A stretch of DNA of 62,705 nucleotides from Candidatus Woesearchaeota archaeon (GCA_016211215.1 JACQSR010000026.1:1-62705), one strand, 5' to 3'. Positions 21,890-26,391 are shown, numbered from the stretch's first letter. A program made the numbers and translations. The notes: generated by a model not told the origin, from the sequence alone.

Positions 21890-21972
21890 AGCGACATAAA
21901 CAGTTATACAAGGTAGTATGTCGCTTCGTAATAAGCAAGTGACATTATGTATAGAAATTTGTGTCACTTGCT
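21890..21972. repeat. Twin hairpins between convergent tfb and MGMT genes
   Basis: AGCGACATA 21890-21898 with TATGTCGCT 21917-21925; AGCAAGTGACA 21934-21944 with TGTCACTTGCT 21962-21972. Confidence 0.65.
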
Positions 21973-22278
21973 ATATCTGAATCTGTGCAAAAATTTCTCC
22001 AGGTCTACAATCCCGTCCTTTATTGACACGCCTTCTTTTTCCAGAAGCTTAATCTTGGCATTTTTTCCGCCCTTTCCTGAATACCCGCCAACGCTTCCTT
22101 TGCTTTTAACAACGCGGTGGCATGGAACTTCAGGCGCATGGGGGTTTTTGCTTAGAGCAGTTCCAATCGCGCGGTAAGCCCTGCTGTTAATAGCATTTCC
22201 CAGCTCCTTGTATGTCGTAACTTTCCCCTTCGGGATTTCCCTGCATTTTTGCCACACCATCTCATGAAATGAAGCCAT
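21964..22278 (-). CDS. ogt: Methylated-DNA--protein-cysteine methyltransferase (short form)
   Basis: IPKGKVTTY, RAIGTAL, active site PCHRV. Confidence 0.9.
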   Translation of the reverse strand: MASFHEMVWQKCREIPKGKVTTYKELGNAINSRAYRAIGTALSKNPHAPEVPCHRVVKSKGSVGGYSGKGGKNAKIKLLEKEGVSIKDGIVDLEKFLHRFRYSK

Positions 22279-22361
22279 AATCTGTAAATTGGAGTCCCTC
22301 TTAATATTTTTTGCCTACTTTCGAAACAATTAAAAAGGGTTGTTCATTCACATACTCAAAC

Positions 22362-22520
22362 ATGGACGGGGATGAGGAAGATTGGAAAAAGAGGCTGGAC
22401 AAAGTTTCTACAACCAAGCGGTGTCCCAAATGCAACGGCCTCTCGCTTCATTTTCATCGGGAATCAGGGAAAGTTACCTGCGAAGATTGCGGTTTTGAGT
22501 TTGTAATATCAAAAATTTAA
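22362..22520 (+). CDS. Small TFIIB-type Zn-ribbon protein
   Basis: CPKC...CEDCG; start moved to ATG 22362. Confidence 0.65.
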   Translation: MDGDEEDWKKRLDKVSTTKRCPKCNGLSLHFHRESGKVTCEDCGFEFVISKI

Positions 22521-22560
22521 GCAAAATTGCTTGGTTTTTGCAAAGAAAAGAGGGTGTAGG

Positions 22561-23061
22561 GTGCCAAAACACAGGATGCAGCGTGTAGGGGTGTTTGTAG
22601 ACGTTCAAAACCTCTATTATTCTGCCATAAACCTATACGACGCCAAGGTTAATTTCTCGGTTATTCTTAAGGAGGCAGTCAAGGACAGGCAGCTGGTAAG
22701 GGCCATAGCATACGTCATCAAGGCTGATGTGAAGGACGAATCCAATTTCTTTGAGGCCCTTGAAAGGATTGGATTTGATGTCAGGGCAAAGGACATCCAG
22801 ATTTTCTACGGCGGCAAGAAGAAGGGCGATTGGGATGTGGGCATAGCAATGGACATCATGAGGCTTGCCGGAAAGATTGATGTTGTTGTGCTTGTATCCG
22901 GCGATGGTGATTTCAGGGACTTGCTGGAGCACGTGAAGTCGCTTGGGTGCAGGGCCGAGGTGATTGCGTTCGGCAAGTCAAGCTCTTCCCGTTTGATTGA
23001 GGAAGCTGACGATTTCATAGACCTTGATGTAATCAAGGGGAGGATTTTGATAAGAAAATGA
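22561..23061 (+). CDS. NYN domain (LabA/DUF88) protein
   Basis: FVDVQN, KGDWDVGIAMD, LVSGDGDF, ADDFIDL; likely GTG start 22561. Confidence 0.92.
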   Translation: MPKHRMQRVGVFVDVQNLYYSAINLYDAKVNFSVILKEAVKDRQLVRAIAYVIKADVKDESNFFEALERIGFDVRAKDIQIFYGGKKKGDWDVGIAMDIMRLAGKIDVVVLVSGDGDFRDLLEHVKSLGCRAEVIAFGKSSSSRLIEEADDFIDLDVIKGRILIRK

Positions 23062-23828
23062 GCAGGGTCGTGAAGAAGCAGAAGATTGCAGATGGCACCT
23101 ACCTTCTGGAGCTGGAAGCCCCGGAGATAGCGAAAAAGATAGGGCCTGGCCAATTCGTCCTCATACGGCCAAAAGCACGAACAGAAGGGATATGCCTCCC
23201 GGTTGGAATCGTGAAAAGAAACACAATTTCGGTTGTGGTAAAAGGGGAAAACTCAAAGGTGCTTGCATCTTTGAAGAGCAATGACCACGTGAGCGACATC
23301 GCAGGCCCGATTGGCAACCAGACCTCAATAGAGGAGGTTGAAAATGTGGTATTCATATCCGATTCTTATGGTATCCCATCAATTTACAACATCGCCCAGG
23401 CATACAAGGACAGCAAGGTTCAGACATACATAATCATAGGCGATAAATCCAGGAAGTTTCTGTACTGGGAAGACAAGATGAAGGAAATTACCAACAAGAT
23501 AGTTATATGCACTGAAGACGGAAGCAGGGGCCACAGGGGAACTGTGCCTTCCAACCTGAGGAACATTCTTTCGGACTCCCAGTTTGAGCTTGCCATTGTT
23601 GCAGGAACTCCGTCGTTCATGCACGAAGTCTCAAAATTCACAAGGCAGAGGATAAAAACAAAGGCGGTGGTAAATCCCCTCATGATTGACCCAATAGGCC
23701 TCTCCGGAACATGCAGGATAAGGGTGGATGAAAAGATTAAGTTTGCAACCATCGACGGACCGGAATTCAATGCCCACTCGGTGGATTTTGATGAGCTCAG
23801 GGAGAGGATTGGCAGGGGGTTTGAATAG
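23058..23828 (+). CDS. NfnA/SudB-like (PyrK-family) subunit with degenerate cofactor motifs
   Basis: APEIA, PGQF, GP.G, DGPEF; the Fe-S motif reads MIDPIGLSGTC...FATIDG. Confidence 0.8.
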   Translation: MSRVVKKQKIADGTYLLELEAPEIAKKIGPGQFVLIRPKARTEGICLPVGIVKRNTISVVVKGENSKVLASLKSNDHVSDIAGPIGNQTSIEEVENVVFISDSYGIPSIYNIAQAYKDSKVQTYIIIGDKSRKFLYWEDKMKEITNKIVICTEDGSRGHRGTVPSNLRNILSDSQFELAIVAGTPSFMHEVSKFTRQRIKTKAVVNPLMIDPIGLSGTCRIRVDEKIKFATIDGPEFNAHSVDFDELRERIGRGFE

Positions 23829-23830
23829 CC

Positions 23831-25162
23831 ATGGAAGCAAAAAAAAATCCATTTGAGGAGATCGAGGCTGGATTCTCAGCGTCCCAGGCTGTTGCGGAAT
23901 CATCGCTGTGCAAATCCTGCACGGAACCGAAATGCGTCCAGGGATGCCCGGCTGGTGTGGATATCCCCCAATTTATTAAATGCATAGAAGAAGGAAATCC
24001 AAATGCTGCCATCGGCATTATTGCAAAATCAGATAATCTTCCCTTTGCATGTTCGCGCCTTTGCCCCAGGGAAAGTATGTGTGAAGCATCATGCTCTTCT
24101 TCAAATGGCAGCCCCGTGCAAATAGGGAAGCTGGAAAGATACGCATATGAGAATGGGCATGTGGAAATTCCCCGAATAAGGAAAAAATCAAGGAAAATCG
24201 CGGTTGTGGGTTCAGGGCCCGCAGGATTATCGTGTGCTGAGGACCTGGCAAAACTGGGATATGATGTTACAGTTTTTGAGGCCCTCCATTCCCCAGGCGG
24301 CAGCATGAGAAGCGTGGTGCCGAATTTCAGGCTTCCCCACAAGACGGTGGATAGCCACATTGCATACCTTTCCTCCCTGGGCGTAAAAATAATAAACAAT
24401 GCAGTCGTAGGCAGGCTTATAACCATTCCGGAGCTGAAGAAGAGGTATTCTGCGGTGTTCATCGCAACCGGCTCCTCCCTTCCAACATACATGGGCATTG
24501 AGGGTGAACATCTACAGAGTGTGATAACTGCAAATGAATTTCTTTACAGGATTAACGTTATTGAGCAGCACCTTTTTGACCAAAAAAACGGCATATTCAC
24601 GCCCGATAGGGTTATTGTTGTTGGCGGCAATGATGCCGCAATAGACTGCGCCAGGATGGCAGTCCGTCTCGGGGCTCGCGCAACTGTTCTCTACCACAAG
24701 TCATTAAACGAGCTCACAGCAACCCATGACAACATACACTGGGCAAGGGAAGAGGGGATTCAATTCCTTATGCTGTCCCTCCCGAAAAAATACCTTGGCT
24801 CGTCAAAAGTTGAGGGCATAGAGGTAATTCAGATGAAAATGGAAGAAGATGAGATAGGGAACAAGGTTCCTGTCGAGATTGAGGGCTCGGAGTTCACAGA
24901 AACTGCTGATTTGGTGATACTTGCGCTGGGAACTACAGCAAGCCCTATTGTGGTGAACCAGACAAATATCAACCACAATCTTCGCGGCAATGTATTTGTT
25001 GACGATAACCTTATGACAAGCGTGCAGGGCATCTTTTCGGGTGGTGCAGTAACCGGCGCATCAACTGTAGTTGAGTCCATGGTTCTAGGCAAGAGGGCCG
25101 CAAAATCTATAGATTATTATTTGAGCACGCCGCATAGGGAGGTTGAGGTTGAAAATGATTGA
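23831..25162 (+). CDS. NfnB/SudA-like (GltD-family) Fe-S flavoprotein
   Basis: CKSCTEPKCVQGCP, CSRLCPRESMCEASC, IGKLER, VGSGPAGL. Confidence 0.88.
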   Translation: MEAKKNPFEEIEAGFSASQAVAESSLCKSCTEPKCVQGCPAGVDIPQFIKCIEEGNPNAAIGIIAKSDNLPFACSRLCPRESMCEASCSSSNGSPVQIGKLERYAYENGHVEIPRIRKKSRKIAVVGSGPAGLSCAEDLAKLGYDVTVFEALHSPGGSMRSVVPNFRLPHKTVDSHIAYLSSLGVKIINNAVVGRLITIPELKKRYSAVFIATGSSLPTYMGIEGEHLQSVITANEFLYRINVIEQHLFDQKNGIFTPDRVIVVGGNDAAIDCARMAVRLGARATVLYHKSLNELTATHDNIHWAREEGIQFLMLSLPKKYLGSSKVEGIEVIQMKMEEDEIGNKVPVEIEGSEFTETADLVILALGTTASPIVVNQTNINHNLRGNVFVDDNLMTSVQGIFSGGAVTGASTVVESMVLGKRAAKSIDYYLSTPHREVEVEND

Positions 25163-25469
25163 AGTTTCTTCAGAGACCTTTGAAGACGAGGTCCTCAGGT
25201 CTAAAAAGCCCGTTGTGGTTGACTTCTGGGCGGAATGGTGTGGCCCATGCAGGCAGCTTGCCCCCCTATACCACAAGCTTGAAGAGAAGAACAAGGACGT
25301 CAAGTTCTGCAAGCTAAATGTTGACGAGAACCATGCCACTGCATCGGAGTTTGGCATAATGGCAATCCCCTGCATAATCTCCTTCAGGGATGGAAAGGAG
25401 CAGCAGCGTATCGTTGGGAACGTTGGTGAAGGCAAGATTCAGGAAATGATTTCGGGGCTTCAGAAATAG
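25155..25469 (+). CDS. trxA: Thioredoxin
   Basis: VDFWAEWCGPC, cis-Pro AIP; start moved to ATG 25155. Confidence 0.95.
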   Translation: MIEVSSETFEDEVLRSKKPVVVDFWAEWCGPCRQLAPLYHKLEEKNKDVKFCKLNVDENHATASEFGIMAIPCIISFRDGKEQQRIVGNVGEGKIQEMISGLQK

Positions 25470-25565: not shown

Positions 25566-25937
25566 ATGGCGTACGAAATAAAAAAACCCTGGGAAAACCC
25601 CTTTTCAGGATACCATCATGCAACACATGATGAGGGGCATGTTTCTCATGACTATGCGTCAGCGGAGAAATACCACGCCACATCTTCGGAGCTTTACAAC
25701 ACCGAAAAGGGCCAGGATGAGAAGGAAGAGGATGAGAAAGAAGGAGATAAGGGTGAATCAATAGAAGATGAGGTAAAAAAGGAGGAAAAAGAGGAGGATG
25801 CAGATGTTAAGGCTTCCTCATCTTCAATGGGCGTTCCAGGCGTGGATACTGATGTAAAGGAAAAGAAAAAATCGACAACCATCGACGAAATGATAGAGAA
25901 GGCAATAAAATCGGAGAAGGAGGTCATCCACAGGTAA
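25566..25937 (+). CDS. Hypothetical protein, His/Tyr-rich N-terminus and acidic linker
   Basis: 123-aa ORF downstream of a TATA-like site. Confidence 0.6.
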   Translation: MAYEIKKPWENPFSGYHHATHDEGHVSHDYASAEKYHATSSELYNTEKGQDEKEEDEKEGDKGESIEDEVKKEEKEEDADVKASSSSMGVPGVDTDVKEKKKSTTIDEMIEKAIKSEKEVIHR

Positions 25938-25938
25938 A

Positions 25939-26391
25939 ATGCCATGCTGCAACCCATATTCGGCAGGCCATGAGGTAATGTTAAAGACCAGCACCTATAG
26001 CATAGACTCCCACGGCGATTACGGCGCAACTCTAAGGTTTCTTGCGAAAGAGGACCTGCCCCGCTATACTGCGATGTTCTATTTTCCCTCGCATCATGAA
26101 TCAGTAACTGAAGTCCGCTATGGCAGGGTTAATGCTGACTACGACGAGGGGTTTAGCGCGTTTATGGATGCATTAAGGGGTCCTCCGCTTGAAGTTTATA
26201 TTCCCAGCAATGTGGTCATGCCGTCTGCTCCTGCAATAAGGCATGAGCAGCCCCCGGAACCCAGGAAATCAGCCCATGATGAGATAGAAAAGGCCCTTCT
26301 GCAGATTAAGGGTGCATTGCTCGTCGAGGAGGTAATTGAGCAGGTATCGATTAAAAGGGTCAGAAGGCGGCGCATTTTGATTTCACGCTAA
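25939..26391 (+). CDS. Hypothetical protein
   Basis: 150-aa ORF starting 1 nt after the preceding stop. Confidence 0.55.
   Translation: MPCCNPYSAGHEVMLKTSTYSIDSHGDYGATLRFLAKEDLPRYTAMFYFPSHHESVTEVRYGRVNADYDEGFSAFMDALRGPPLEVYIPSNVVMPSAPAIRHEQPPEPRKSAHDEIEKALLQIKGALLVEEVIEQVSIKRVRRRRILISR

Follow-up and report, generated by a model that had tools for sequence, protein, structure and literature searches.

Among enzymes that bifurcate electrons at a flavin, NfnAB has the simplest structure, and it serves as the main model of how bifurcation works. Here we analyze an NfnAB-like gene pair that has lost several cofactor motifs of that enzyme yet is kept under strong purifying selection. The pair lies in a 62,705-nt stretch of DNA from Candidatus Woesearchaeota archaeon (GCA_016211215.1 JACQSR010000026.1:1-62705), the whole of which we call the window. 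The source genome, that of a DPANN archaeon, comprises 35 contigs with a total of 1.06 Mb and has a completeness of 84%. The nearest public homologues carry the names 'Candidatus Woesearchaeota archaeon' and 'Nanoarchaeota archaeon'. We use NfnA* and NfnB* as labels for the eroded NfnA-like and NfnB-like proteins of this locus and its relatives.

Organization of the locus

Five closely packed genes occupy positions 22362-25469, in the order Znr, NYN, NfnA*, NfnB*, Trx; all coordinates of the cluster refer to the + strand. NfnA* (23058..23828, 256 aa) has the NfnA/PyrK fold of the small subunit (NF004862, 233 bits; match to 5jca_S at 1e-49), and NfnB* (23831..25162, 443 aa) has the NfnB/GltD fold of the large subunit, with a match to 4ylf_B at 4.5e-103 and a score of 407 bits on TIGR01316, under the model cut-off of 472. 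The pair is preceded by a gene for a NYN-domain (PIN-like) nuclease of 166 aa (22561..23061; PF01936, E 4e-35), whose acidic active-site residues are present and which is 82-88% identical inside the genus and 57-76% over the order. It is followed by a thioredoxin gene (Trx; 25155..25469, WCGPC; PF00085 4.5e-30, TIGR01068 112 bits), which a scan of the source genome found to be its sole clear Trx. The cluster begins with a gene for a small Zn-ribbon protein (Znr; 22362..22520) of 52 aa with the motif CPKC...CEDC and weak Pfam matches to Zn_Ribbon_TF and Trm112p. Znr orthologues lie upstream of NYN in genomes G001-G003, G013 and G004 and at loci L045, L052 and L055.

A first-pass annotation of this DNA began the feature at 22362 without mentioning Znr; that position is the ATG of the Znr open reading frame (ORF), and NYN most likely starts at GTG 22561. 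The same annotation had NYN, NfnA, NfnB and Trx all overlapping by a few nucleotides. This holds for NYN/NfnA* (4 nt) and for NfnB*/Trx (8 nt with the Trx start ATG 25155, an overlap of equal length in the three sister species, L021-L023), and fails for NfnA*/NfnB*, where the nfnA-like gene lies directly upstream of the nfnB-like gene across a 2-nt gap. A TATA-like A/T-rich box (TTAATATTTTTT, 22300..22311) lies upstream of the cluster and a second (TTAAATAA, at about 25537) between Trx and the following gene. As read from the sequence, the boxes before Znr and again after Trx suggest that Znr through Trx form a single transcription unit.

The same five-gene cluster, with its derived motifs, is present in three further species of the genus (G001-G003). 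The exact state of erosion is restricted to this one genus of Woesearchaeales, and relatives from other families (G012, G013, G026 and G027) have canonical motifs.

Cofactor motifs of NfnA*

Motifs were read by alignment to the solved NfnAB structures of Thermotoga maritima (4ylf) and Pyrococcus furiosus (5jca), a comparison that the first-pass annotation had proposed. Every motif change it had listed is confirmed: in the small subunit, the loss of two of the three Cys of the [2Fe-2S] site, now found in all four species, with EGICLP for ERIPLT and SDSYG for GGGVG; in the large subunit, GGND for GGGN, YHK for YRR and a GGD without its Asp. Its statement that NfnB keeps all [4Fe-4S] Cys and the Glu is likewise correct.

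In canonical NfnA the ERxPxT strand binds a-FAD, with the Thr directed to the flavin N5; a glycine loop binds NAD(H), and an Asp(Cys)3 motif, DGTGMCGxCRx10CV, carries the [2Fe-2S] cluster (PMC6405883). The a-FAD strand ERIPLT reads EGICLP in NfnA* (residues 43-48; 23184..23201): the Arg is lost, Thr is replaced by Pro, and a new Cys, Cys46, is invariant in the genus. VGKTT, the GKTT motif, reads KGENS. The NAD(H) loop GGGVG reads SDSYG (residues 101-105; 23358..23372). Over the genus this loop is [SATC]DS[YH]G, and the end of the a-FAD strand is C[LV]P. The [2Fe-2S] site (residues 211-220 and 229-235; 23688..23762) has changed from DGTGMCGACR...FACVDGP to DPIGLSGTCR...FATIDGP, which leaves Asp211 and the middle Cys (Cys219) of the former ligands; the first and third Cys are gone in all four species.

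Nine of 36 canonical-conserved columns of NfnA* are changed in all four species, and all nine lie at, or adjoin, the three former ligand sites (FAD, NAD and cluster). Within the genus, residues at the former FAD site vary freely, and the former cluster loop DPIGLSGTCR is invariant at 10/10 positions across the four species. The AlphaFold2 (AF2) model has a pLDDT of 89.7 and a TM-score of 0.92 to 5jca_S (Foldseek), and its lone poorly predicted internal stretch is the former cluster loop (residues 212-215). NfnA* persists as a folded and probably cofactor-less partner.

Cofactor motifs of NfnB*

NfnB* keeps one part of the electron path and has lost another. The two [4Fe-4S] motifs of NfnB, RCx2Cx4Cx3CP and CPQExQCx3C (PMC6405883), are both retained (23906..24094; LCKSCTEPKCVQGCP and SRLCPRESMCEASC), with seven Cys and one Glu as ligands in all four species (C27, C30, C35 and C39; C78, E81, C84 and C88). 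The ADP-binding core of the b-FAD site is also present (24206..24337), comprising GxGxxG and FEALHxPGG (VGSGPAG...FEALHSPGG) and the N5-contacting Arg of PNFRLP, Arg201 in P. furiosus (Pf) numbering. Elsewhere in this site the Asp of the FAD 'GD' motif is deleted (FSGG-AVTG, 25034..25057), and E199N and K204H are changed.

The former NADP(H) site (24617..24730) shows three changes: GGGNTA to GGNDAA, YRR to YHK, and Arg333 (Pf numbering) to Thr298. The GGND loop is invariant in the genus. The position of the Arg-Arg pair for the 2'-phosphate reads YHK, FQK, YHK and FER across the four species, and that of Arg333 reads Thr, Ser, Ser and Cys; Arg333 is conserved in bifurcating NfnB and is Thr or Ser in non-bifurcating relatives (PMC12221290). 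Its loss is a further change, beyond those listed in the first-pass annotation.

These changes are far beyond chance. None of the ~120 nearest NfnB homologues outside the genus, drawn from a collection of 5.8 billion proteins, has any of these states: all keep GxGN[VT]A, YRR, Arg333 and GGD. Canonical NfnB has 168 columns with a conservation of 95% or more. The genus retains 91 of them; 41 differ in all four species, and the other 36 are mixed. The NADPH domain shows the highest density of losses (22 kept, 18 changed, 12 mixed; Fe-S domain 25, 9 and 9; FAD domain 44, 12 and 15). Many changed columns hold one identical new residue in all four species. The fold is retained in the AF2 model (pLDDT 86; TM-score 0.90 to 5jca_L and 0.91 to 4ylf_B, Foldseek). 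Among genus-conserved Cys of NfnB* beyond the Fe-S ligands none is new, the only one being also present in canonical NfnB, and NfnB* has no redox-active CxxC adjoining the flavin, the criterion for a thioredoxin reductase (TrxR). The single new invariant Cys of the pair is C46 of NfnA*.

Selection within the genus

The NfnA*B* pair is not a pseudogene and is held by purifying selection. The first-pass annotation had already argued from intact ORFs against pseudogenisation, and the ORFs are indeed intact and length-conserved in all four species. It had also proposed a dN/dS comparison across relatives. Because synonymous sites are saturated between the four species (pS 0.74-0.93), pairwise Nei-Gojobori dN/dS is unsuitable, and pN/pS bounds and a maximum-likelihood codon model were used in its place. 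The pN values are 0.18-0.25 for NfnA* and 0.21-0.26 for NfnB*, compared with 0.20-0.32 for triose-phosphate isomerase (TPI). The codon model gives an omega of 0.035-0.04 for NfnA*, 0.025-0.04 for NfnB*, 0.03-0.04 for TPI, 0.06 for Trx and ~0.005 for NYN; these values are imprecise owing to the saturation, yet far from 1. The pair (omega ~0.03-0.04) is thus as constrained as TPI, and intact ORFs, saturated synonymous sites and retained folds together argue that there has been no decay. In the tree the stem of the genus measures at least 0.69-0.74 substitutions per site, against 0.23-0.54 for the crown.

A wider set of degenerate DPANN pairs

A profile of the four NfnA* sequences was run against a set of 1.84 billion cluster representatives, one of which stands for the genus (514 bits). 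Scores then fall to 243 bits; among the next matches are further NfnA-like proteins with eroded sites, which group with the genus in trees. Thus erosion is unique to one genus in its exact state only, and similar erosion in other combinations, a point missed by the first-pass annotation, occurs in related DPANN lineages. In a tree of concatenated NfnA and NfnB, a clade supported at 97% unites the other degenerate lineages; its sisterhood with the genus is supported at only 66% and may reflect long-branch attraction. Contigs of these lineages have the same neighbourhood, with an NYN 63-68% identical to that of the window.

The losses differ from lineage to lineage, striking the NADP(H) site in some and the Fe-S branch in others. 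L050 (NCBI GCA_053531995.1) has polB and then TrxR-Znr-NYN-NfnA*-NfnB*-Trx, and its NfnB-like protein retains the NADPH site, has no Arg333, and has altered Fe-S spacing. L052 (Logan; Znr-NfnA*-NfnB*-Trx) combines a fully eroded NfnA* with an NfnB-like protein that has lost the first Fe-S motif and most Fe-S ligands and retains the NADPH site. In L049 (Logan; NfnA*-NfnB*-Trx) the NADPH loop reads GGDH and Arg333 is gone. L045 (NCBI GCA_053533495.1), with a canonical TrxR followed at a distance by Znr-NYN-x-NfnA*-NfnB*-TPI, has zero Fe-S Cys in its NfnB-like protein and an intact NADPH site, Arg333 and GGD. L047 (JGI; NYN-NfnA*-NfnB*-UT-TPI) has degenerate Fe-S motifs, a retained NADPH site and no GD Asp (GGA). 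L048 (ENA; cupredoxin-like gene, NfnA*, NfnB*) has degenerate Fe-S motifs, GGSE in the NADPH loop, FEH for YRR and His for Arg333. L055 (ENA; Znr-x-NYN-NfnA-Zn ribbon-NfnB) is near-canonical and retains the a-FAD/NAD branch.

Common to all degenerate lineages examined are the loss of the small-subunit a-FAD/NAD(H) site and the retention of the large-subunit FAD GxGxxG. Each of them, L048 possibly excepted, has at least one route for flavin reduction, Fe-S or NADPH. In the literature collection that was searched, no paper linked Nfn and DPANN, and the genus is one branch of a wider and apparently undescribed DPANN set of Nfn-like pairs with mosaic cofactor loss.

Two small genes were noted at some of these loci. 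One, found on three unrelated metagenomic contigs (L044:3-683, L045:2866-3213, L048:1-195) just upstream of a degenerate NfnA-like gene, encodes a small lipoprotein-like cupredoxin-like protein with the C-terminus ...GT[VI]IVE. The other encodes a double Zn-ribbon protein of 84-87 aa and separates NfnA from NfnB in L055 (L055:5868-6122); a similar protein lies between NYN and TPI in G004 (L032:5457-5720).

Gene neighbourhood and the thioredoxin system

The position of NfnA*B* between NYN and Trx is inherited. NYN orthologues (57-88% identical) are present in 19 of 41 relatives, most without nfnAB, and nfnAB adjoins NYN in only seven of these 19. Without nfnAB, NYN is followed by Trx in G014 and, with an 8-nt overlap, in G016; G024 has TrxR-NYN-HTH-Trx (HTH, helix-turn-helix) and G004 has TrxR-Znr-NYN-...-TPI. 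A canonical Nfn adjoins NYN in G013 (TrxR-Znr-NYN-NfnA-NfnB). Since NYN-Trx clusters exist without nfnAB and canonical nfnAB also adjoins NYN, the ancestral block is polB / TrxR-(Znr)-NYN-(NfnAB)-Trx ... TPI, and Trx behind NfnB* reflects inherited gene order. The operon is therefore not specific evidence for electron flow to Trx or to the nuclease, as the first-pass annotation had taken it to be. The same clusters dispose of the idea that Trx was newly recruited upon motif erosion. An NADPH-producing enzyme is nevertheless unlikely to have been placed meaninglessly between TrxR and Trx genes, and the ancestral role of the block's Nfn was probably to provide reducing power for the thioredoxin system.

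The TrxR-(Zn-ribbon)-NYN-Trx block recurs across Woesearchaeales families with or without nfnAB, often beside a divergent family-B DNA polymerase (window 22362-23061 and 25155-25469; L026, L032, L033, L040, L041, L043, L050). NYN is its most conserved gene (omega ~0.005). After Trx come two conserved proteins without Pfam matches, an acidic one of 123 aa and one of 150 aa (window 25566-26391), which in other families likewise keep a syntenic position behind nfnB (L024, L025). Divergent to the cluster is a gene for a 104-aa protein (window 21964-22278, - strand) that consists solely of the DNA-binding/active-site domain of O6-methylguanine methyltransferase, with PCHRV present; its position is conserved in the genus.

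Replacement of a missing thioredoxin reductase by NfnA*B* is excluded, as a TrxR-like gene is present on another contig of the genome (C25) and in nearly all relatives. The gene stands at the end of a suf Fe-S assembly operon, ~5 kb from the gene of an 87-aa ferredoxin (C25:15346-22597, - strand, outside the window: glutamate dehydrogenase, the ferredoxin, a membrane protein, SufB-SufD-SufS-SufU-SufC, TrxR). In the TrxR of the genus, GGSDSAAKEA and YRG/YRK stand where GGGxxAxE and HRRD are expected, a state conserved in the genus (L057, L058) and common in the order, where the TIGR01292 cut-off is not reached by any match in 32 of 41 genomes. Judged by these motifs, the GGSDSA-type TrxR may be independent of pyridine nucleotides. 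One TrxR reads GGNDAA, and we considered gene conversion with TrxR as the source of the GGND loop of NfnB*; TrxR-model scores, 43-60 bits for the NfnB* of the genus versus 63-74 bits for canonical NfnB, rule this out.

Ferredoxin is a plausible electron source, given the 87-aa ferredoxin, the full suf operon and the 2-oxoacid:ferredoxin oxidoreductase found in the three sister genomes. As to nicotinamides, the genome has a glutamate dehydrogenase with a canonical GFGNVG loop. No NAD kinase (PF20143) was detected in any of the four species of the genus; across the order it can be detected in just 12 genomes out of 41, and in none that carries nfnAB, canonical or not. Its absence is equally seen in relatives with canonical NfnAB and so is uninformative about whether the lineage lost NADP altogether. 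The absence of NAD kinase from nfnAB genomes raises the question of their NADP source.

Interpretation and alternatives

That the complex is unable to bifurcate, as the first-pass annotation supposed, is borne out by the loss of the a-FAD/NAD/[2Fe-2S] branch, the NADP(H) site and Arg333. With these losses, which take in the whole high-potential branch, the pair should not act as a bifurcating NADH/ferredoxin:NADP+ transhydrogenase, and very probably it is not a transhydrogenase at all.

We propose that the pair is a selectively kept derivative of the electron-bifurcating NfnAB transhydrogenase. The path remaining in NfnB* would be a ferredoxin-facing wire of [4Fe-4S], [4Fe-4S] and FAD, by which the pair might accept low-potential electrons from ferredoxin without pyridine nucleotides and pass them, at the flavin or close to it, to an acceptor other than a nicotinamide. 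Precedents exist for such chemistry: NfnB alone and Pf NfnII carry out non-bifurcating ferredoxin-linked reactions, and non-bifurcating relatives have no Arg333 (PMC12221290); TRi-type TrxRs, in which GGGxxAxE and HRRD are lost, accept no electrons from NAD(P)H (PMC5627308). The leading candidate acceptor is the thioredoxin system, because nfnAB sits inside the ancestral TrxR-Znr-NYN-(NfnAB)-Trx block; this is the weakest step of the explanation. Redox activity with some non-nicotinamide partner seems marginally probable, and that this partner is the thioredoxin system seems rather doubtful. The reading as a whole, a non-bifurcating ferredoxin-facing [4Fe-4S]2-FAD enzyme with a cofactor-less partner and a non-nicotinamide acceptor, possibly the thioredoxin system, is the one we favour, though tentatively.

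Several observations weigh against it. The GD Asp and residues of the flavin environment (E199N, K204H) are changed, so FAD binding is not assured, and NfnB* has gained no conserved Cys or CxxC that would provide an obvious chemistry of disulfide reduction. The genome retains its TrxR-like gene (CATC kept, 328 bits). The adjacency to Trx is explained by synteny, NYN and Trx being neighbours also in genomes without nfnAB, and TPI and the secreted cupredoxin-like protein, though unrelated, are equally syntenic with the block. Trx follows degenerate NfnB in four of seven lineages versus none of four with canonical NfnB, a difference that is not significant (Fisher p = 0.11) and comes from lineages that are not independent. 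Lastly, no single electron path is conserved over the clade, L045 having no Fe-S ligands and L052 few, which favours a non-redox role.

The main rival is that the pair is a non-catalytic pseudoenzyme with a structural, regulatory or sensing role, for which electron transfer to a substrate would have ceased to matter; it could, for instance, sense redox state or oxygen through its Fe-S clusters or serve as a scaffold for its neighbours in the gene cluster. Cofactor loss is mosaic and leaves the lineages no common path: L045 is without any Fe-S ligands and L052 without most, and the genus, L048 and L049 are without the NADPH site. The former a-FAD and 2'-phosphate positions are free to vary within the genus, and the former cluster loop and GGND are invariant, as for an interface or structural constraint. 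We take this rival seriously but consider it less likely than the ferredoxin-facing enzyme, as all eight [4Fe-4S] ligands and the FAD core GxGxxG/FEALHxPGG are strictly kept at an omega of ~0.03, which would be costly without a redox role, and every lineage but perhaps one keeps an Fe-S or NADPH route to the flavin.

A nicotinamide-dependent ferredoxin oxidoreductase (FNOR) with an atypical, perhaps NADH-specific, site and a passive NfnA*, as proposed for Pf NfnII, is a still less probable alternative. An enzyme changing from NADPH to NADH would need to lose the Arg-Arg pair, and in one species Glu occupies the place of the first Arg (LFER); the beta-alpha-beta unit of the domain is predicted to be intact, and FNOR activity is known for NfnB alone and for NfnII (PMC12221290). 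However, all four species have Asn in place of the second Gly of GxGxxA, followed at once by Asp, placing bulk and negative charge at the pyrophosphate. The analogous change in TRi-type TrxR abolishes reduction by NAD(P)H (PMC5627308), and the loop is seen in none of the ~120 homologues with a working site.

For the suggestion in the first-pass annotation that electrons may go to the NYN nuclease or to an RNA-processing step, one can cite only the adjacency and 4-nt overlap of NYN and NfnA* and the NYN-NfnAB synteny in several families. We found nothing that points there and regard it as very remote: NYN occurs in 19 of 41 relatives, mostly without nfnAB, a distribution that weakly refutes the idea; it is a metal-dependent hydrolase fold without a redox cofactor; and the unrelated TPI and secreted cupredoxin-like genes are just as syntenic. 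Relaxed selection with slow pseudogenisation, for which one might cite the complete loss of nfnAB in many DPANN relatives and the very long stem branch, has a negligible chance of being correct. For the crown group it is refuted: in four species at synonymous saturation the ORFs are intact and of conserved length, pN is not above that of TPI at an omega of ~0.03-0.04, and many derived residues are identical across the four species.

Implications

Returning to the ferredoxin-facing enzyme, a broader form of the proposal, unlikely as a whole, is that DPANN archaea of this order have a hitherto unreported family of NfnAB-derived complexes wired into a thioredoxin operon (TrxR-Znr-NYN-NfnA*-NfnB*-Trx), in which the diffusible NAD(P)H step is short-circuited and, in this genus, ferredoxin electrons travel via both [4Fe-4S] clusters and the flavin of NfnB* directly to the thioredoxin system. 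If true, the genus, in which NAD kinase went undetected, would possess a novel type of ferredoxin:thioredoxin reductase system on an Nfn scaffold, whose thioredoxin system would be Trx plus a TrxR with a non-canonical NADPH loop (GGSDSA / YRG). Sister lineages that retain NADPH and have no Fe-S would represent an NADPH-fed version of the enzyme, and the lineages together would form a natural cofactor-deletion series of a bifurcating enzyme.

For enzymology, natural variants with individual branches removed are ready material for testing what each branch contributes. For annotation, the genes now carry labels such as 'sulfide/dihydroorotate dehydrogenase-like FAD/NAD-binding protein' and 'FAD-dependent oxidoreductase' or 'NADPH-dependent glutamate synthase', and metabolic reconstructions of DPANN archaea should treat them neither as Nfn nor as sources of NADPH. 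For physiology, they may point to an unrecognised link between Nfn-type enzymes and thioredoxin in organisms with minimal redox metabolism. Should the pair prove non-catalytic, it would clearly exemplify how a redox enzyme with several cofactors can become a pseudoenzyme.

Comparison with known systems

The closest reference is NfnAB/NfnSL (NfnI) of T. maritima and P. furiosus (4ylf, 5jca). The pair shares with it the gene order nfnA-nfnB, both folds (TM ~0.9), 32-40% identity, the ligands of both [4Fe-4S] clusters, the FAD GxGxxG and the N5 Arg. An nfnA-like gene directly upstream of an nfnB-like gene has been used to recognize bifurcating NfnAB (PMC12221290), and this arrangement is found here. 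The pair differs in having no a-FAD, NAD(H) site, [2Fe-2S], NADP(H) site, Arg333 or GD Asp, losses that would make the bifurcating transhydrogenase reaction impossible.

The 'Sud' protein of diplomonads (Giardia) is Nfn-derived, has lost the small-subunit [2Fe-2S], and was judged unable to perform the Nfn reaction (PMC6405883); unlike the present pair it is eukaryotic, laterally acquired and fused, and nicotinamide-site loss is not reported for it. Outside the Nfn family, TRi (Desulfovibrio), FFTR (Clostridium) and DDOR likewise have a 'pseudo-NADPH domain' after erosion of GGGxxAxE and HRRD; they use another donor (ferredoxin for FFTR) and work within the thioredoxin system. These enzymes keep a redox-active CxxC, whereas NfnB* has no such Cys pair.

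Stand-alone NfnB-like Fnor enzymes of the Cac_0764 type ('cluster 2', PMC12221290) share the NfnB fold, the Fe-S clusters and FAD, and the replacement of Arg333 by Thr or Ser, and are non-bifurcating. They have no NfnA partner and use NADP(H), whereas the present pair keeps an NfnA-like gene and has lost the NADP(H) motifs. NfnII/Xfn of P. furiosus (5vj7) keeps ERIPLT, [2Fe-2S], the NADPH site and FNOR activity, all of which, to judge from its motifs, the present pair has lost. Xfn is nevertheless also an NfnAB paralogue with an altered small-subunit NAD(H) loop, in its case GAYTG, and it too performs no Nfn reaction, its second substrate being called 'X'.

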